DNA from: Escherichia phage 4MG
Strand: one strand, 5' to 3'
Length of the DNA stretch: 64,000 nt
Sequence record: NC_022968.1
Each line of letters starts with the position of its first letter. Position 1 is the stretch's first letter. Shown here in pieces: positions 49,233-57,646 of this stretch. The translations under genes and the position numbers were made by a program. The notes beneath the pieces were generated by a model. It was not told where the DNA came from. It ran no database searches and worked only from the letters and a program-made list of their open reading frames with translations.

Positions 49233-49529
49233 TTACTTCTTAATCAGTTCATCAAGAGGAATGTACAGACTGGTTTTGCCGGGTCTTTCTACCACTTCGA
49301 GGTAACCTAGTGCCTCTAAAGTTTTAAGAGACCTCTGTACACTTCGTGGGCTAACACTAGTTGCTTCCGCAATGGTGTTAACTGACTCTACAAACTCTGC
49401 TCCCTTGCTCTGGAAGAACTGCCACCTGAACTTAATATACAGGTAGACCCGGAGGTCTGTTGACGAGACCTCCGGATTTGACAGGATTCCATACGAGCAT
49501 AAAACACTGAAAGACTTATCTATTCTCAT
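49233..49529 (-). CDS. helix-turn-helix DNA-binding protein
   Basis: IAEATSVSPRSVQRSLKTLEALGYL resembles a winged-helix HTH. Confidence 0.45.
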   Translation of the reverse strand: MRIDKSFSVLCSYGILSNPEVSSTDLRVYLYIKFRWQFFQSKGAEFVESVNTIAEATSVSPRSVQRSLKTLEALGYLEVVERPGKTSLYIPLDELIKK

Positions 49530-49912
49530 GCTGTCTCCAGATAGTCTTTCAGATATTCGATGACGTAGCTACGTGCATAGTTCTCATCAGCATCGTTATG
49601 CCACATTTTAGTGACAACACCAGTCAATTTGTATAGTGAACGTTCAAAATGGTTCATCCCCGGAAGAATACTCACCATAAAATCCTCTTCCTCACTAATT
49701 TCAAGAGGATTAACAGTGAAGTCTGGTTGAACTAGTGTCTCCCAGGCTCCATTTTTGAACCGTTTTAAGGTCAAGGCACGACGATTTGAAGAGGTAAGAT
49801 ACTCAGAGTAGTCATCCCCCTGGTGAAAACCGATCCTGACCATAGCCCCACTGTACATAAAATCAACATCCACAGTGAGGCGCTCTACCTTCAGCCTATT
49901 TTGCGTGTTCAT
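49526..49912 (-). CDS. hypothetical protein
   Basis: ATGA overlap. Confidence 0.45.
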   Translation of the reverse strand: MNTQNRLKVERLTVDVDFMYSGAMVRIGFHQGDDYSEYLTSSNRRALTLKRFKNGAWETLVQPDFTVNPLEISEEEDFMVSILPGMNHFERSLYKLTGVVTKMWHNDADENYARSYVIEYLKDYLETA

Positions 49913-51332
49913 CTAAGTCAACAGCCCTCCCAAATGGTGGGTCGTACTTGGATTTGTTACGTCCACACAGCACCCACAACGTATCCCACTTCTTACCCCA
50001 GTCTTTTTTGCGTGAGGTAAGGTCTTCAATGTACCCATCAGTGAAGATTATCACATCTTTTGCATCAGGGATATTCTTTTCGATGTATTCAAAGGCAACA
50101 CCAGCGCGTGTACCACCTGTGGAAGTCACATTATAGTCCAGCATCTCCTTGATGTTATCCTGTGTGTACACTTTCACTTCCCCAACCATCGTAGACCAGC
50201 AGAAAAGTGTTACCCGGAAGCACTTATACAGGGTGCACAGGCCAATAATCTCATTGAATATCCTGGTCATGGTCTGTCTGCTGATAGAACCCGACACATC
50301 GAAGCATACAACGATGTCGATTGTCTCAGATTGCTTCCTTCCCGGAAGAATAATGCTCTGTTTGTGGGTGATTGCCCCATAATTACGCAGTACCTGGGTC
50401 ACCGAGCCAGACCTACGAGCGGGTTTACGGTACGAAAGGTGCGACCTCACACGAGAAACCATACGTTGTTTAATGATTTTCATGTAGTCAATGTGTGGTT
50501 TCCGCATTCTTGCAATCAATTCCCGCGCTTCTTTCGGCCCTTCACCCCCGGCAGCACTCATTGCAGCATCAATCAGCCCAGCAGACCACGCAAGATTCTC
50601 ATCTTTGGCGATTGGGCCGAGGCTTGGGTGCGGGTCTACATACCCAAGGATGTCACGCTCAGGGTCATAATCCCCGATATGTGTACCCATAGGGTTGCCA
50701 GTAACCGCTTTCCCATTGTAGATCATCTCGTAAATTTCTTCTGCTGTCTTGTTTTGGAATGCAAAATCACAATAGCAGTAGGCAAGGAATCCAAATTCTT
50801 TGTCTTTATTGAACTTAGTTTGCGCCCCCAGAGGGAAGAACTTCAGGGTTTTATTCCTTGGCCCCAAGTCTCCAGCCACCAAATCTGTGTTGATGTACTG
50901 ATCCGCTGCGATATTGTACATCTTGGAGTTGAAGCTTTTACCACGGGCCATATGGTCGTTGGTGATATGGCGTATTTCATGCATGAGAATAACCACCACT
51001 TCTTTTGGTGTTTTCTTGCGATAGAATACGTCTACATACGTCTTGTAATCATCCTTCTGTTGTTGTGTCATTGTTGGATGATTGTCAATACGATCAAACA
51101 CTTTCTTTTTGCGCTCTGCTGGCATACCCATAATGAACTCAGGGTTGTAATACAGATTACGATGGTCTGTTGCAGCCGTTGGCAACCAACGCCAGTCAGC
51201 GATGATCGGTAAAGAACTCAGCAAAGTTCCGTAAAATGGGCGATGTTGCAGCAATGCAATACGTGCTGACTGAATTAGTTTTAGCGCTTCATCTTGAAGC
51301 TTAGAGATCATCTCAGATTCATCTTTGTACAC
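49896..51332 (-). CDS. metallopeptidase-like / von Willebrand factor A domain protein (DUF2201-like architecture)
   Basis: HEIRH (HExxH) in N-terminal half; DVSGSI (MIDAS DxSxS) in C-terminal half; start set at GTG with GGAG RBS. Confidence 0.55.
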   Translation of the reverse strand: MYKDESEMISKLQDEALKLIQSARIALLQHRPFYGTLLSSLPIIADWRWLPTAATDHRNLYYNPEFIMGMPAERKKKVFDRIDNHPTMTQQQKDDYKTYVDVFYRKKTPKEVVVILMHEIRHITNDHMARGKSFNSKMYNIAADQYINTDLVAGDLGPRNKTLKFFPLGAQTKFNKDKEFGFLAYCYCDFAFQNKTAEEIYEMIYNGKAVTGNPMGTHIGDYDPERDILGYVDPHPSLGPIAKDENLAWSAGLIDAAMSAAGGEGPKEARELIARMRKPHIDYMKIIKQRMVSRVRSHLSYRKPARRSGSVTQVLRNYGAITHKQSIILPGRKQSETIDIVVCFDVSGSISRQTMTRIFNEIIGLCTLYKCFRVTLFCWSTMVGEVKVYTQDNIKEMLDYNVTSTGGTRAGVAFEYIEKNIPDAKDVIIFTDGYIEDLTSRKKDWGKKWDTLWVLCGRNKSKYDPPFGRAVDLDEHAK

Positions 51333-51344
51333 AGTTATCTCCAA

Positions 51345-51372
51345 ATAAAAAAGGCCATCTATATGATGGCCT
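51345..51372 (-). terminator. rho-independent terminator (minus strand)
   Basis: Minus-strand GGCCATCATATAGATGGCC followed by TTTTTTATTT. Confidence 0.65.
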
Positions 51373-51381
51373 GATTATAAT

Positions 51382-51645
51382 TCACTCTTCTACAGGATGC
51401 AAGAACTTTTGTGGTAAAAAGTGATCAAGCCCTTCTATTCTGAAACACCAGGCCAACTGAGCACCAGGAGCACCGGGGAAATGTGGGATAGCAAACAAGA
51501 CAATCCCATCAACTTTTCCAATTACGAGTCGCCCCATAGAGGTTGTTGATACCTTTTGACCGAACTTGATATCCGGAATAAAGCCTGCATCCAACATTTT
51601 CTTTTCAGGAGCCGACGCGGGTCGGCCCAGCATTTCTTCGTACAT
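51382..51645 (-). CDS. hypothetical protein
   Basis: TAATG overlap with upstream gene. Confidence 0.45.
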   Translation of the reverse strand: MYEEMLGRPASAPEKKMLDAGFIPDIKFGQKVSTTSMGRLVIGKVDGIVLFAIPHFPGAPGAQLAWCFRIEGLDHFLPQKFLHPVEE

Positions 51646-52577
51646 TACACCACCTTGTTGAGCATCGCAGCAATCTTAGGCAGGCCCATCTCTGTCTGAA
51701 TGATCAGTTGGGTCAGCGCCTTTTCCATTTTCTTCGACACAATGATGAAGTTGTCTTTAGCAAAACCAACTTTAAGGTCCATAATCAGGATCGCCTTTGG
51801 TTCACCAGACAGCTTCTCTCCGGTCAGAGAGCAGGTATTGCGAATATACTTCGCTTTGAACTGTGCATAGGTCACAGAAACGTTCATACCAGCGTCGGAG
51901 AATGTCTTGCAGTAGTTGGCGTAGGCCAGCGCTACAGCAACATCATCAGGCAGTTTTTGCTTCTCTTCCGCTGGTGCTGTAGTTTCTTCTGCAACCGGAG
52001 GCTGTTTATGGAAGTGCTGTTCAGCAAGTTCCATTGCGGAAGACGCGGTGCGCTCTTTAGGTTCCGGGTGACGTGGAAAATCTTCTGCAACAACAGGTTT
52101 TTCTACAACTTCTGAAGTATCTACTGGCATTTCTTTCTCCTCTTTTGGAATATATTTGGTTTTCAGTTTTTCCATGTGCTCTTTTGACATGTTGAGCATC
52201 ATTGCTTGTACGATTTCACGGTCAAGTGGCTCAATTATAGTGATTGCCGTCTTCTTGTCAACCAAACAATCTTTCAGTTCGTTAGCACGTTGAAGAACAA
52301 CACAGACGTTACCACGTACATAACCCTTCTTATCGTTGATACGCTCAACGGTTGGGTACAGCGGGTCTTTTTCACCATGCACAGAGCGCATACTGAAGTC
52401 CATATTGGTATAGTCACATTTACCCATACCAAGAAGCTTTTCACCCATCATGAACCAGTCATCAAGGGTCAGACTGAATTCCAGGCCACGTTTCTTTGTG
52501 CGTTCAACCTTTTTACGGTAACGTTCCTCTAGACTTTTGATCTCACTGGCGGTAAATTTCTTTTTCACATCAAACAT
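51645..52577 (-). CDS. hypothetical protein with degenerate HNH_3-like segment
   Basis: ERINDKKGYVRGNVCVVLQRANELK resembles the C-terminal half of HNH_3; minus-strand AAGGAG RBS. Confidence 0.45.
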   Translation of the reverse strand: MFDVKKKFTASEIKSLEERYRKKVERTKKRGLEFSLTLDDWFMMGEKLLGMGKCDYTNMDFSMRSVHGEKDPLYPTVERINDKKGYVRGNVCVVLQRANELKDCLVDKKTAITIIEPLDREIVQAMMLNMSKEHMEKLKTKYIPKEEKEMPVDTSEVVEKPVVAEDFPRHPEPKERTASSAMELAEQHFHKQPPVAEETTAPAEEKQKLPDDVAVALAYANYCKTFSDAGMNVSVTYAQFKAKYIRNTCSLTGEKLSGEPKAILIMDLKVGFAKDNFIIVSKKMEKALTQLIIQTEMGLPKIAAMLNKVV

Positions 52578-52647
52578 TTTCTACTCCTTGGGTTATTCCC
52601 GTTCTTGTTGGGAGAATTATCCTGGATTGTGTCCCCACTGTCAACAC

Positions 52648-52676
52648 TTGATTTCAAAATTTTTACAGTGTATGCT
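52648..52676 (+). promoter_or_regulatory. sigma70-type promoter
   Basis: TTGATT - 17 nt - TATGCT, then GAGGAA RBS and ATG at 52708. Confidence 0.55.
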
Positions 52677-52707
52677 TTCTATACATTCAGTAAGCAGAGG
52701 AATAAAA

Positions 52708-53739
52708 ATGAGTAAGTTTAACGTTGATGTGCGACCCGTGTCTGTCCCAAAAGTGACTGCGGATATAGACTGGAGCCTGTTGAAAGATGACCAAACAACC
52801 CGTGACATGCTGGAACAGCTACAGAGAGAAAGGGAGTATCGACAAATGGCAATGATAGGTATGTGGGAAAACCCACGAGCCAGTAAGGATGAGTTTATCT
52901 CCCGTTTGCAACCCAAGATGGTGGAGGATAATCCTTTCGTAGAACTGCTCAGAGAACTTGTTGATAGGGTTGATGTCAGAGATGGCCCATATTCATGGTT
53001 ATGGGGGACATATGAAGACCGCCGTGGTGGTATGGACAGACGCCAAATGGCAAGATTAGAAGTAGAAATAAGAGAAAGAAACCCTTCCTCAAGCCCTTTT
53101 GAGCGCGCGCCGGGTGAGGATGTATCACGGGGTAGTGTTATCGCTTCTATTCGTGGTCATGGTGATGGTGCAGCGCTTATTGATAGTCATAACTGGCGTT
53201 TGTCTTCACGCACAAGGAACTTTCTCTCTATCTTGAAGCCACTGATCCGGCAAATGGGCCGCTGTGAGCCTGACCTGGTGATAAAGGCAGATTTCAGAAG
53301 GTATAGTGCCAGTACATCGAGCTTTATGCAGCCGCGCTCTGATATCGACCTGCTGGGTATTTCTTTAACCATTGGCGACCTGCTTGTATATTGTGATTTC
53401 AGAGATCGTGATAATTTTGATGTACACTGCAATCACATTGGACACAGTGTTTTCCATTTGCGTGACCAAGGTGTAAGGGTGCAGAATGCTCGTGAGGCGA
53501 TGTTGATTTGCAATAAATATGAAACGCTCTTCACTTTTAAGTGGGACGAACGTCTGAGAAACATGATGGCAGGTGAATCTCCAACGGAAGATGAACTGCT
53601 AATGATGGAAATGGCTGGTTATAAAGATGAATTTTGGCTTGACAAGATAGATTACTTTGATACACTCAAGATCAAACCTTTTAACATGATGGAGCAATCA
53701 CGATGGTACGAACAAACAATTCCTCGATTCCAGTTTTAA
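52708..53739 (+). CDS. hypothetical protein
   Basis: 343 aa, trimmed start. Confidence 0.5.
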   Translation: MSKFNVDVRPVSVPKVTADIDWSLLKDDQTTRDMLEQLQREREYRQMAMIGMWENPRASKDEFISRLQPKMVEDNPFVELLRELVDRVDVRDGPYSWLWGTYEDRRGGMDRRQMARLEVEIRERNPSSSPFERAPGEDVSRGSVIASIRGHGDGAALIDSHNWRLSSRTRNFLSILKPLIRQMGRCEPDLVIKADFRRYSASTSSFMQPRSDIDLLGISLTIGDLLVYCDFRDRDNFDVHCNHIGHSVFHLRDQGVRVQNAREAMLICNKYETLFTFKWDERLRNMMAGESPTEDELLMMEMAGYKDEFWLDKIDYFDTLKIKPFNMMEQSRWYEQTIPRFQF

Positions 53740-54212
53740 CCCCGGCACAAGAACTCGCTTTAGCGATTAAAATTGCAGCAGAAGGCCACCTGAATCAGAA
53801 AGATAAGGGTGGTAACCCGTATATTCTTCACCCGCTGAAGGTGATGCACTACCTGAAGACCGATGATTTTCAGCTTATGGCTATCGCCGCGCTTCATGAT
53901 GTGGTTGAAGACACCGATGTTACCGCTTCGGATCTGGTAATGCTGGGCTTCTCGAATCGTGTGAAGGATGCTGTGGTTCTTCTGACGAAAACCCCTAATC
54001 AGACACCGGAAGAGTATTTTAACCGCCTAGCCCAAAACTACGATGCGGTACGTGTGAAGCTTGCAGACCTGCGCCATAACTCTGATGTTCGTCGTCTGAA
54101 AGGGCTGACGGATAAAGATTTGTTGCGTGTTCGTAAGTATCACGACATGTACCTTCGTCTGACAAAGATGAAAGAACACCATGAAGCAATCAATATGTTG
54201 TCGCAACTATGA
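53703..54212 (+). CDS. HD-domain (p)ppGpp hydrolase-like protein (small alarmone hydrolase)
   Basis: HLNQKDKGGNPYILHP ... AALHDVVEDT ... LADLRHN match the RelA/SpoT hydrolase motifs. Confidence 0.6.
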   Translation: MVRTNNSSIPVLTPAQELALAIKIAAEGHLNQKDKGGNPYILHPLKVMHYLKTDDFQLMAIAALHDVVEDTDVTASDLVMLGFSNRVKDAVVLLTKTPNQTPEEYFNRLAQNYDAVRVKLADLRHNSDVRRLKGLTDKDLLRVRKYHDMYLRLTKMKEHHEAINMLSQL

Positions 54213-54562
54213 ACCTCTTGACACTGCTCCGCACAAACAAGTATACTCAGAAACAGATGGGGTTCCTGCTGGGAATTCCCTCGTGGAAAGTGAGTAAGCT
54301 CGTTCTCAAGCTTGAGAGCCGTGGTTACATACAGGTTAATCGTAGATACAAACTGAGTGGTCCAGTGTCAAGACCTTTTTTGATTTACGATCAGAATCTT
54401 TACAAAGTGACTCTATACAGGAGCAAAGAATGTCCAGAAATCAAGGTTACACCCACAAAGGAACAGTCCAGAAGCCGCGACTCGGTTGGGCGTGGACTGA
54501 GAAACTTCGCGAAACATCTCGTTACTGGATGTCTTACCAGCATTCGGAGACCGGAAAGGTAG
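54209..54562 (+). CDS. hypothetical protein (3' end overlaps next ORF)
   Basis: ATGA overlap with upstream gene. Confidence 0.35.
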   Translation: MNLLTLLRTNKYTQKQMGFLLGIPSWKVSKLVLKLESRGYIQVNRRYKLSGPVSRPFLIYDQNLYKVTLYRSKECPEIKVTPTKEQSRSRDSVGRGLRNFAKHLVTGCLTSIRRPER

Positions 54563-54642
54563 TGAAGTACCGTAAAACTGACGGTAAAGTTGTGGGTGGT
54601 GAAGACTACCTTGATCTCGAATCCATTAAGGAGCTTAAATGA
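54430..54642 (+). CDS. hypothetical protein
   Basis: CAGGAGCAAAGA RBS; overlaps previous ORF in another frame. Confidence 0.4.
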   Translation: MSRNQGYTHKGTVQKPRLGWAWTEKLRETSRYWMSYQHSETGKVVKYRKTDGKVVGGEDYLDLESIKELK

Positions 54643-55127
54643 ATATCAAATCAAGCAAACAGCTTTACGAAGAGCACCTTGAAAAAGGTACACCACTTGA
54701 GAACATCCTCAAGGTTATGGTCAACAGGGCTGATCGTTATCAGAACTATTACAACGATATGAAGATCCGTGCAAAGAACTACGAAAAGCAATATGATGAC
54801 CTGCTTCGTAGTTCTGGACGGCTTATCACTGTTAAGGTTGATCATATAGCACAGGACAACTGGGTGTCATACACCTGGTACAAGCACAACAAATATCGCT
54901 GGAACGGTAAATGCTGGCACAAAACTGATGATAAAGGGCCGCATTACAATGCAAAACACTACCAAGGGAAGTTTACTGTGGATATTCTTCTTTCAGAAGA
55001 AGATATGCCAGAAGTTTTCGTTGGTAAATGCACGGGTAGTGTCTTCGGAGAAAAGGTGATCACAGCCAAAGGGCATATGATCGGGTACGGTGATGAATTT
55101 GAATTGAGGAAAATAACCAATGGCTAA
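54639..55127 (+). CDS. hypothetical protein
   Basis: ATGA overlap. Confidence 0.5.
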   Translation: MNIKSSKQLYEEHLEKGTPLENILKVMVNRADRYQNYYNDMKIRAKNYEKQYDDLLRSSGRLITVKVDHIAQDNWVSYTWYKHNKYRWNGKCWHKTDDKGPHYNAKHYQGKFTVDILLSEEDMPEVFVGKCTGSVFGEKVITAKGHMIGYGDEFELRKITNG

Positions 55128-55500
55128 CTGGAAAACACGGTTTGACATACGTGATGTATGGGGTCAACGAAATGGTGAATGCGGTCCTGAAGAATGGACT
55201 GATAAAACTGTTCATGAGTTGGCAAAAGAGGTTGCTCGTCGCATAAAGCGTAAGTGGCCTCAACACATGATTGACGGTCATGACTGGGACCCTAATCTCA
55301 CAGAAATCTACGACTGGTTTGTGTCGGTTCCTTCTTTGAAAGAACATCGTGATATGCTGGCGCGTCTGATTGCGAATGAGAATGTCAGTGATGATGAGAT
55401 CTGCGATCTTTCAAACAACACACCGATGAAAGAGTTCAATGACGCAATGGACCTTTTCTACGACTGGTGTGATCGTAACTTGGTATGGGTGGAAAAGTGA
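55120..55500 (+). CDS. hypothetical protein
   Basis: ORF. Confidence 0.45.
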   Translation: MANWKTRFDIRDVWGQRNGECGPEEWTDKTVHELAKEVARRIKRKWPQHMIDGHDWDPNLTEIYDWFVSVPSLKEHRDMLARLIANENVSDDEICDLSNNTPMKEFNDAMDLFYDWCDRNLVWVEK

Positions 55501-55713
55501 AGCCTTTAGATTTTAACAGGGACGTTCCTCGTCATCGACACCGCCTTAGTCGTCGTGCATGGTATGTGGTTTTTGGTGCTGGTAGGGTGCATCAAACAGA
55601 TAAGTTATTGCCGAAAGACCTTGCAGAGAGAATCCATACCCTATACAATGATATAGACCCCATTGATATTGAGGGGGTAATTGAAAGTTATCTTGAACAA
55701 AGGAGACAAACTA

Positions 55714-56922
55714 ATGTCGAGTCGTAACATTTTTGATGAGAACCGTATCACACTTCGGGATGTTCCTGATCTGATGAAGTTCTGTCAGCGTCGTGGACGC
55801 GCTTTGATGATGTTTGGTGGTGCTGGTCTTGGCAAGAGCCAGGCAATGAAGCAGGTAGCCAATATGATGTTTGGTGAGCGTGACGACAACCTGATCGACT
55901 TCCGTCTTGCGGATAAAGAACCGTCTGACGTTGTTGGGGTGCAGATCCCCGTTACCGACAACAATGGTATTACACGTACTGTGTACGCTATCCCAAGCTT
56001 CTGGCCTGATGATCCGAACTGGCAGGGCATTGTGTTCCTGGATGAGTTGCTCCATGCGGAGCCATATCTCCAGAAAGTTGCCTATCAGATCATGCTTGAT
56101 CATAAGATCGGTACATATAAGTTCCCGGTAGGCGCGGTGTTTGCAGGTGCAGGTAACCGCCCTGGTGATGGTACTGCGGTAAGTATGCTGGAAGCTCCAC
56201 TGGCTAACCGTATGATCCTCGTTGAACTGGATTACGACACAACTGTTTGGTTACAGGACTTCGCTATGCACAACGATGTTCACCCATCCGTTGTTGGTTT
56301 TGTGAGCGCAAACCCAAGTAAGATCGAAAACTATGAAGAGATGCTGGAGATTAACTCCCCTTCATACGCCACTCCGCGTACTTGGGTCACCGCAAGTGAT
56401 ATTCTGTACGATTATGACGCAGGCCTGCTCTCTGCTCGTCTGGCACTGGCATCGTTGCAGGGTAGTATCGGTAAGCCTCTGGCTAACGAACTGTGGGAAT
56501 ACCATACCCGTATCTCCAAAATGGTCTCTATCGAGGATGTGATGAGCGGTAAACTTACTAAACATACCGGGGCTGACTCATCCGACATCCTGTGGACACT
56601 GGGTTCTCAAGGTTCTATCTGGCTTCGTAAGGCTATCCAGAACAAGGAGTACACTGATGATGAGGTTATCGCGTTTGCTGCTAACTTCCTGAAGTATATG
56701 TATGATAACTTCGGGCAGGATGACACGGCATCCAACCGTGACTTCGTAAGTTCGGTGTTTATGTCCTTCATCCAGGAGAACTCCTTCGGGAAGGCGATCC
56801 TGATGTCGGGTAACCGTGAGCGTTTACCTGCTAAACTACTCCAGAAATACCCGGTGGTTATGGAGATCATCACAGAATACCGTAAGAACTTCTCTGACGG
56901 TGTAGATGCAATCGTGAACTAA
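55714..56922 (+). CDS. MoxR/CobS-like AAA+ ATPase
   Basis: Walker A GGAGLGKSQ, Walker B IVFLDELLHAEP; trimmed to ATG after AAAGGAGACAAACTA. Confidence 0.65.
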   Translation: MSSRNIFDENRITLRDVPDLMKFCQRRGRALMMFGGAGLGKSQAMKQVANMMFGERDDNLIDFRLADKEPSDVVGVQIPVTDNNGITRTVYAIPSFWPDDPNWQGIVFLDELLHAEPYLQKVAYQIMLDHKIGTYKFPVGAVFAGAGNRPGDGTAVSMLEAPLANRMILVELDYDTTVWLQDFAMHNDVHPSVVGFVSANPSKIENYEEMLEINSPSYATPRTWVTASDILYDYDAGLLSARLALASLQGSIGKPLANELWEYHTRISKMVSIEDVMSGKLTKHTGADSSDILWTLGSQGSIWLRKAIQNKEYTDDEVIAFAANFLKYMYDNFGQDDTASNRDFVSSVFMSFIQENSFGKAILMSGNRERLPAKLLQKYPVVMEIITEYRKNFSDGVDAIVN

Positions 56923-56931
56923 GGGGGCGTT

Positions 56932-57621
56932 GTGTCTGGAGATCGCTGGATTCTGTATCGTCAACAGCATGAGCTTGGGTTTTATGAGCTTAAACTCTGC
57001 CTGAACAGTGGTGATGAGTGGGCGTATGCCCCTATCATCTCTCTTGGCTCTGGAAGCCAACAGGCAGATTTTGCTGCTGAGGATTATTTTAAAAGGTCTT
57101 TACCTTTGCTAGGAGAAGAGGGCTACGACAGAAGTATAGACCTGAAGCAGAAGAGAAGCTATGTTGAGGTGGAGACAGACACACAACGCAGACACCTTAG
57201 TTTTATCGAAAGGGGAATATTCCCCTTTGGTGAATGGGCGGGTGTTGCTTTCGAGGACTGTCCCCCACCCCTGCTGTTGTGGTATATCAACGGGGGTGAT
57301 TTTGATAACCTCAAAATTTCTTGCTCTCTGAAGGCAGCGTGTCTTGGTGCGTATCTTTCAATTCAGGATCGTGCTGATTATTACAAACCATCAAGGGACA
57401 AGGTGAGTCTTTCTGGAACCATATTACGCTGTGAAAGGTTCAGAGAGATGTACAGCGTTCATATGGTAACAGAAGACAGGAATTACTTGACCTTCCTGAG
57501 CAAGACACAATACGAATGTGGTGATGAGGCCTGTTTTAATGGCTACATTATTGAGAACATGGAATGGGGTGGTATCTGCTACAATCGTGGTTCTTCTAAA
57601 AAACCTGCTAAAAACATTTGA
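56932..57621 (+). CDS. hypothetical protein
   Basis: GTG start after CTAAGGGGGCGTT. Confidence 0.45.
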   Translation: MSGDRWILYRQQHELGFYELKLCLNSGDEWAYAPIISLGSGSQQADFAAEDYFKRSLPLLGEEGYDRSIDLKQKRSYVEVETDTQRRHLSFIERGIFPFGEWAGVAFEDCPPPLLLWYINGGDFDNLKISCSLKAACLGAYLSIQDRADYYKPSRDKVSLSGTILRCERFREMYSVHMVTEDRNYLTFLSKTQYECGDEACFNGYIIENMEWGGICYNRGSSKKPAKNI

Positions 57622-57646
57622 CAGCCTCTTCGGAGGCTGTTAATCT
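57618..57646 (+). promoter_or_regulatory. sigma70-type promoter whose spacer is a hairpin (may also act as a weak terminator)
   Basis: TTGACA - GCCTCTTCGGAGGCTGT - TAATCT. Confidence 0.4.

Follow-up and report, generated by a model that had tools for sequence, protein, structure and literature searches.

We analysed a 64,000-nucleotide stretch of Escherichia phage 4MG (NC_022968.1; the whole stretch is referred to as the window) and found that two of its genes, lying apart on opposite strands, form a pair already known from phages, here split in a way specific to the lineage, and not a new system. One gene (49896..51332, minus strand; 478 aa) encodes a protein with a DUF2201_N zincin-like metallopeptidase domain and a C-terminal VWA domain (DUF2201) with a metal ion-dependent adhesion site (MIDAS). 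The other (55714..56922, plus strand; 402 aa) encodes an AAA+ ATPase assigned to the MoxR class (AAA_5-type). By sequence comparison they belong to the families of phage N4 gp25 (phrog_1314) and gp24 (phrog_1297), respectively. The best explanation, which we consider likely, is that the two proteins are halves of one conserved module that was split in core Vequintavirinae, that they still cooperate, and that they act early or in mid-infection on a phage or host protein. We found no remark on the split layout in the searchable literature.

The initial annotation of this DNA, made from the letters alone, described the two genes as convergent and about 4.4 kb apart. Both open reading frames (ORFs) lie where it had put them and the distance holds (4,381 bp), but the strands show that the genes are divergent: the VWA gene, at the lower coordinates, is on the minus strand, and the ATPase gene, at the higher coordinates, is on the plus strand. 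The pair thus does not sit adjacent in one operon, being divergent and in different transcription arms. The ATPase start is ATG with AAAGGAGA ahead, and it is overlapped by the last small ORF of the rightward arm. The VWA gene starts at GTG with GGAG ahead, and the homologous position in Enterobacter phage EC152 is ATG. The 9 kb around the pair are ~86-87% identical to Escherichia phage LNA4, phage EC152 (Seunavirus) and Cronobacter phage GAP31, which places the window, as far as sequence identity tells, in a Seunavirus-like phage of the Vequintavirinae.

Synteny in related phages, a check proposed in the initial annotation, was sampled by scanning annotated phage regions from many lineages with hidden Markov models (HMMs) of both families. 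At 15 of 15 loci outside core Vequintavirinae that hold both genes, these are co-directional, ATPase then VWA, as expected from the earlier statement that a metallopeptidase-vWA protein is usually encoded next to a MoxR ATPase; there it stands just downstream on the same strand. The 15 loci are from N4, Vibrio D498, Pectobacterium CB4, K64-1, PBECO4, fHe-Yen9-04, Atu_ph07, PA5oct, AR9, Aeromonas 4L372D, A5-4, ChuuTotoro, one bacterial genome and two metagenome contigs; A5-4 and ChuuTotoro are unclassified Vequintavirinae and were counted outside the core. The gaps range from an overlap to 631 bp, apart from CB4 (1.2 kb, holding two small ORFs) and PA5oct (2.85 kb). In PA5oct (NC_071039.1, 2079-7265) the ATPase and VWA genes are separated by four ORFs, one of them for a putative homing endonuclease, and an HNH homing endonuclease stands between the two genes in A5-4.

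The split is kept at all nine core Vequintavirinae loci, the window included, which span four genera (Seunavirus, Vequintavirus, Mydovirus, and Henunavirus); the genes are divergent and 3.6-4.5 kb apart in each. In Serratia phage ChuuTotoro the rightward operon of the window (large ORF, HD hydrolase, small ORFs, ATPase) is present and still ends in the VWA gene. Comparison of these gene orders shows an ancestral layout in which the ATPase gene was followed by the VWA gene, adjacent on one strand. The present arrangement is most simply explained if, in the ancestor of core Vequintavirinae, the VWA gene was relocated once, crossing a bidirectional promoter region to a place behind a gene for an Srd-like protein. 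Vibrio phage phiTY18 (MW451250.1) has a distant ATPase homologue (3e-52 to the family profile) and was considered as a second split pair; it was rejected, as the VWA match, a 505-aa ORF 6.3 kb upstream, was judged by reading its sequence to be a Ro60-like TROVE+VWA protein.

Family profiles built around the window proteins match N4 gp24 at 8e-76 and gp25 at 2e-78. By tblastn, homologues of both proteins were detected in hundreds of phage records, including N4-like and rV5-like phages, the jumbo phages RaK2/K64-1, PBECO4, fHe-Yen9-04, PA5oct and Atu_ph07, as well as Bacillus phage AR9 and Aeromonas phages. The module is found in ~1.6% of sequenced phage records (Schitoviridae, Vequintavirinae, several jumbo lineages, AR9). 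The label 'MoxR ATPase' is already present in the annotations of rV5, PVP-SE1 and FV3, and EC152 is annotated with 'MoxR ATPase' and 'VWA-like domain-containing protein'. N4 gp24 and gp25 are among the 14 core genes of N4-like phages, with function unknown (PMC4193335, PMC2784036), and have been reported as middle genes (PMC4193335). The N4 pair (Schitoviridae) shares both protein families and PHROGs with the window, but the N4 genes are adjacent and co-directional with a gap of ~130-170 bp (128 bp between stop-to-stop ORFs, 166 bp between annotated coding sequences), in contrast to the divergent genes of the window 4.4 kb apart. The window proteins are only ~23% identical to those of N4 and are longer, the ATPase by a C-terminal helical extension and the VWA protein with 478 aa against 380 aa.

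The assignment of the ATPase to the MoxR class comes from the family profile and the predicted fold only. Walker A (GGAGLGKS, 55816..55839, plus strand) and Walker B (VFLDEL, 56032..56049, plus strand) are present, as had been reported. In an alignment of 57 relatives G38 and K41 of Walker A, E111 of Walker B, N148 and R222 are invariant, while D110 of Walker B and R166 are conserved in at least 90%. From their positions, N148 is a candidate sensor 1, R166 a candidate Arg finger and R222 a candidate sensor 2. The protein falls in phrog_1297 at 3.4e-106, and its family comprises 7,581 cluster representatives at E<=0.001. Its sole Pfam match is bpMoxR (E=0.05, 13 bits against a 27-bit cut-off), and no NCBIfam model matched. 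Among the 57 aligned relatives, AAA_5 matches 37, AAA_3 matches 18 and bpMoxR matches 14. The family profile searched against the PDB matched the midasin AAA domains (1e-28 summed; best single AAA domain 1.8e-8) and RavA (6e-7); direct phmmer searches of the ATPase or the VWA protein against PDB sequences gave zero matches.

The AlphaFold2 (AF2) model of the ATPase (confidence score, pLDDT, 91) was compared with solved structures by Foldseek. The top 16 matches are all NorQ and CbbQ chains (E 4e-9 to 1e-7; target-normalised template modelling score, TM, ~0.55-0.65), the best of them with E ~4e-9 and target-normalised TM 0.63-0.65, and the model is clearly nearer to NorQ/CbbQ than to Clp, RFC, RuvB, McrB or dynein. 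Pairs of beta-strands at 76-81/87-92 and around 131-136 stand at the sites expected for inserts, and in the model they probably correspond to the MoxR helix-2 and pre-sensor-1 beta-hairpin inserts. In the same model the last ~120 aa make up a helical extension that is specific to the family. The MoxR class is thus supported by the AAA_5, AAA_3 and bpMoxR matches among the relatives, the midasin and RavA profile matches, the NorQ/CbbQ fold and the conserved residues. The initial annotation had proposed a MoxR/CobS-type ATPase, and only the first half of this name stands: CbbQ_C or a CobS-specific domain was found in 0 of the 57 relatives and not in the window protein, and the CobS/CbbQ_C reading was dropped. 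Of the HMM searches suggested there, AAA_5 and CbbQ_C do not match the window ATPase itself, though most of its relatives match AAA_5, and DUF2201_N and VWA do match the VWA protein.

The VWA protein is identified by Pfam with DUF2201_N (4e-24; 86 bits against a gathering score of 23.2), the DUF2201 VWA-like domain (8e-12; 45.8 against 26.4 bits), and VWA_CoxE (2e-7), all above the cut-offs and with DUF2201_N and DUF2201 in the expected order. PF13203 is present in 120 of 120 listed homologues of this protein, and PF09967 too in all except one truncated 375-aa entry. The motifs HEIRH (50967..50981, minus strand; H118, E119, H122; zinc-binding/catalytic) and DVSGS (50286..50300, minus strand; D345, S347, S349; the DxSxS of the MIDAS) were confirmed, and two further stretches with MIDAS residues, TGGT (50109-50120, minus strand; T408) and FTDG (50034-50045, minus strand; D432), were recognised in addition. 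H118, E119, H122, D345, S347, S349, and D432 are invariant and T408 is nearly so in 49 homologues down to 22% identity. The MIDAS (DxSxS...T...D) is therefore complete and stands in a VWA fold, and the model of this domain is also matched by the NorD VWA domain in the fold search.

A different label, 'HNH endonuclease', is carried by phrog_1314 peptidase-VWA proteins and phrog_3118 Srd-like proteins in records such as NC_019517.1, NC_008720.1, and NC_042116.1, and is derived from PHROGs. There is no HNH Pfam match for either the peptidase-VWA or the Srd-like protein, and the label looks like a propagated mis-annotation. Many RefSeq phage records carry it on the peptidase-VWA protein and a correction is due.

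The two halves probably still work together, judging from their patterns of inheritance. Counted by tblastn, records with an ATPase match and records with a VWA match number 64 vs 65 at >=60% identity to the window proteins; with FV3 as the reference they number 118 vs 119, and with N4 16 vs 16, both at >=95% identity. In these matched identity bands the genes are co-inherited. Nearly every record has a single match for each protein, and at 20 of 20 loci each family profile found exactly one match. The identities of the ATPase and VWA proteins to successive relatives run in parallel (97/95, 87/83, 63/69, 50/49, 46/55, 42/37, and ~24/28%), and their pairwise identities are correlated over 153 genome pairs (Pearson r = 0.97). 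Within Seunavirus, the ratio of nonsynonymous to synonymous substitution rates (dN/dS) is 0.025-0.056 for the ATPase gene and 0.035-0.067 for the VWA gene, which indicates strong purifying selection on both.

The promoters that may feed both arms are found in the intergenic region 52578..52707, where back-to-back sigma70-like promoters were detected as consensus matches only. The leftward one (-35 at 52644-52639, minus strand) reads TTGACA, 17 nt, GATAAT and scored 11/12 in the scan; the rightward one (-35 at 52650-52655, plus strand), read from the sequence, is TTGATT, 17 nt, TATGCT. The leftward -35 box (TGTCAA on the plus strand) is invariant in six Vequintavirinae genomes of four genera, and PVP-SE1 has an annotated promoter at the matching place. 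A literature search for Vequintavirinae transcriptomics yielded nothing useful. In Bacillus phage AR9 (NC_031039.1, 2870-5587), an annotated 'early promoter' stands immediately upstream of the ATPase/VWA pair, gp028/gp029.

A terminator-like hairpin (51352..51372, minus strand; AGGCCATC-loop-GATGGCCT followed by T6) lies just upstream of the VWA ribosome-binding site, between the 87-aa ORF that precedes the gene and the VWA start. Detected in a terminator scan, it has an 8-bp G+C-rich stem and a minimum free energy of -13.6 kcal/mol (z-score -2.7) and is unique in the window. In the comparison of Seuna-, Mydo- and Henunavirus genomes, the stem is invariant in five lineages, including EC152, PVP-SE1, KpS8, and Hena1, bar one G-U wobble in EC152, while the loop is variable; no covariation was seen among the compared genomes. 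A TATAAT (51373-51378, minus strand) directly precedes the hairpin, with TTGCAT 17 nt upstream of it. The hairpin and the TATAAT could be a terminator or attenuator plus an internal promoter whose start site is inside the 5' arm. From this conserved arrangement ahead of the gene, VWA expression may be attenuated or separately driven. It is a speculation that such expression would fit the 6:1 ring-to-adaptor stoichiometry of MoxR/VWA complexes.

In the mechanism that we propose for two cooperating halves, the ATPase would assemble as a hexameric ring, by analogy with NorQ-NorD, CbbQ-CbbO and midasin, and the VWA domain would dock on or into this ring at the pore. In the finger-in-pore model of MoxR/VWA complexes one VWA protein is bound per hexamer, with a finger in the pore and the MIDAS site on the client (PMC13036017). 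The MIDAS site of the phage protein would hold an acidic residue of the target, ATP-driven movement would remodel the target, and cleavage would be the work of the fused zincin-like domain, in which the catalytic glutamate is invariant. The VWA gene would have crossed the bidirectional promoter region in the core Vequintavirinae ancestor into the leftward arm behind the Srd-like gene, the ATPase gene remaining in the rightward arm behind the HD hydrolase. A more specific form of this proposal, which we put forward only tentatively, is an AAA+-driven, MIDAS-targeted protease whose single conserved target, attacked early or midway through infection, is a host factor or a phage protein of replication or nucleotide metabolism, and whose halves can be expressed from separate, differently insulated units, possibly at a low VWA:ATPase ratio set by the hairpin.

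Several observations weigh against two cooperating halves that include a protease and act early. The peptidase fold was not recovered in the PDB fold searches, in which the top matches all span the VWA domain only, and the sequence-profile match of the zincin-like N-terminal domain is weak (MJ1213 minigluzincin, E=0.01). At E<=0.01 the ATPase has no Pfam match. Any two core genes that are inherited vertically would be expected to co-occur and to diverge in parallel, so these patterns are no proof of partnership. The VWA gene is separated from the shared promoter region by the terminator-like hairpin and may for this reason not be expressed together with the ATPase gene. More phage records hold an ATPase homologue than a VWA homologue (779-830 vs 549-680), and in at least one case, that of phiTY18, no peptidase-VWA was found in the ~18 kb examined around a distant ATPase homologue. 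The pair directly follows virion structural genes in K64-1, PBECO4, and fHe-Yen9-04, and the ATPase coding sequence of PA5oct has an 'ESI-MS/MS' note, which may mean that mass spectrometry of phage preparations detected the protein; for both of these, a virion role would be a better match than an early one.

Part of these observations would be explained if the ATPase and the peptidase-VWA protein had been independent since the rearrangement, each acting alone or with new partners, and the pairing were historical only. The different transcription arms, the insulation of the VWA gene by the conserved hairpin, the unpartnered ATPase of phiTY18 and the larger number of ATPase records are in line with such a decoupling, which we nevertheless regard as very improbable. 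Record counts are near-equal in the split lineages, neither gene is accelerated relative to the other, dN/dS is below 0.07 for both and all motifs of the joint mechanism are invariant. Pfam and family-profile scans of the window gave no second VWA or AAA+ candidate beside either gene. The surplus of ATPase records is largely a sensitivity effect, because searches with the N4 proteins give equal counts (Pseudomonas 112/112, Rhizobium 20/20, Achromobacter 17/17). A role in virion assembly, in which the pair would chaperone and proteolytically process structural proteins of the head or tail, is unlikely here, though it has been proposed for the homologous pair of group 2.2 jumbo phages (PMC7824862) and was shown in part for Acidianus two-tailed virus (ATV), where p618 (MoxR) binds p892 (VWA) and tail proteins and p892 stimulates the ATPase (PMC4124505). 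The position directly after structural genes in the three jumbo phages named above agrees with it; against it, the scanned 47-60 kb stretch of the window holds no convincing structural gene. The pair more probably serves host takeover, replication or nucleotide metabolism in the early or middle phase than late virion assembly, because in the window the genes share their region with sigma70-like promoters, the Srd-like gene and an HD hydrolase of SpoT (alarmone) type, the AR9 pair is behind an early promoter, N4 gp24/25 are middle genes among nucleotide-metabolism genes, and elsewhere the frequent neighbours of the pair are genes for ThyX/thymidylate synthase, dCMP/dCTP deaminase, DprA, helicase, and polymerase.

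The same neighbours and a radical-SAM enzyme, together with the solved folds nearest to the ATPase, NorQ and CbbQ, which are metal-insertion or activase MoxR proteins, could also point to a metalloenzyme activase like NorQD, CbbQO, CoxDE, and CobST. The pair would then insert metal into, or reactivate, a phage or host enzyme of nucleotide metabolism or replication, and the HExxH domain would be metal-handling or regulatory and not a protease. We think this quite improbable: E119 of HExxH is invariant, as expected for catalysis and not for metal binding alone, no single candidate client enzyme is common to all loci, and similarity in the MoxR core fold says little on the client.

The proposed cooperating pair resembles several known systems in part. 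The pair of group 2.2 jumbo phages, a MoxR AAA+ ATPase and a vWA protein with an N-terminal metallopeptidase, described in 2021 as chaperone and cochaperone (Iyer et al., PMC7824862), has the same domain fusion as the window VWA protein, and homologues were found in K64-1, PBECO4, fHe-Yen9-04, Atu_ph07, and PA5oct; the jumbo-phage genes are adjacent, often after structural genes, whereas the window pair is split and lies in an early-looking region. NorQ-NorD and CbbQ-CbbO include the best structural matches of the ATPase model, and the NorD VWA domain matches the VWA model, but the sequences are only 12-18% identical, a peptidase domain is missing from the bacterial adaptors, CbbQ_C is absent here, and their clients, nitric oxide reductase and Rubisco, are irrelevant to a phage. 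ATV p618/p892 is a viral MoxR/VWA pair like that of the window, a likeness drawn at the level of domain class; ATV is an archaeal virus, p892 has no peptidase domain (PMC7824862), and p618 is a major virion component. Midasin (Rea1/MDN1), the strongest PDB sequence-profile match of the ATPase family, likewise has a MIDAS/VWA domain, which docks onto the AAA ring of the same protein, but unlike the window pair it is a eukaryotic protein of ~4,900 aa in which six AAA domains are fused, with VWA in cis and no peptidase. Neither window protein matches the defence-system models of PADLOC at E<=0.01.

This phage module is widespread and strongly conserved: it is core in N4-like phages and also occurs in many jumbo phages and in rV5-like therapeutic phages. 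Its layout in Vequintavirinae amounts to a natural experiment, showing that adjacency is dispensable and giving separate genetic handles on each half. The early and middle contexts (sigma70-like promoters, the AR9 early promoter, the N4 middle class) are not easily reconciled with the role in virion assembly that has been proposed in print, and for this reason the question of the target is worth an experiment.

The leftward arm upstream of the VWA gene (51382..52577, minus strand) consists of the 87-aa ORF (51382-51645, minus strand) and the Srd-like 'anti-sigma/decoy' protein (51645-52577, minus strand; 310 aa; phrog_3118, 8.5e-106). The N-terminus of the latter matches phrog_4592 'decoy of host sigma70' (6e-19) and phrog_1400 'Srd' (1e-11), and the gene is labelled anti-sigma factor in EC152, PVP-SE1, and Hena1. 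This gene, overlooked in the initial annotation, is the first of the arm that now holds the VWA gene. No tRNA genes were found in the window.

The rightward arm upstream of the ATPase gene (52708..55727, plus strand) holds a 343-aa ORF, the HD hydrolase, a possible winged helix-turn-helix (HTH) protein, and small ORFs. The 343-aa ORF (52708-53739, plus strand; phrog_10920) has the label 'thymidylate kinase' via this PHROG in related RefSeq records, which is doubtful, as Pfam is silent at E<=1. The ppGpp hydrolase that had been noted between the two genes is borne out by a SpoT/RelA-type HD hydrolase (53703-54212, plus strand; 169 aa; RelA/SpoT hydrolase region TIGR00691, 2e-15; motif LHDVVEDT). 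It is a small alarmone-hydrolase-like gene that shares the arm of the ATPase, a linkage repeated in ChuuTotoro, and in EC152 and KpS8 its homologue at the matching operon position is annotated as a metal-dependent phosphohydrolase. For the HTH gene reported in the same interval, the ORF is present (54209-54562, plus strand), while its identity as a winged-HTH protein has sub-threshold matches only (E 0.016-0.12). A clear HTH_36/replication-initiator-like protein (8e-9) is encoded at 49233-49529 (minus strand), outside the interval and downstream of the VWA gene.

The ATPase gene is followed in the rightward arm by a 229-aa ORF (56932-57621, plus strand). It was considered as a replacement VWA partner and rejected, as the VWA profile is silent and Pfam gives nothing below E=0.03 (QSregVF_b, sub-threshold). 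A 148.6-kb IMG/VR contig encodes a protein with 100% identity to the ATPase. The rightward arm appears to be closed after the 229-aa ORF by a bidirectional terminator-like hairpin (57618..57643) with an 11-pair stem, 5 G-C pairs and a T-run on both strands.

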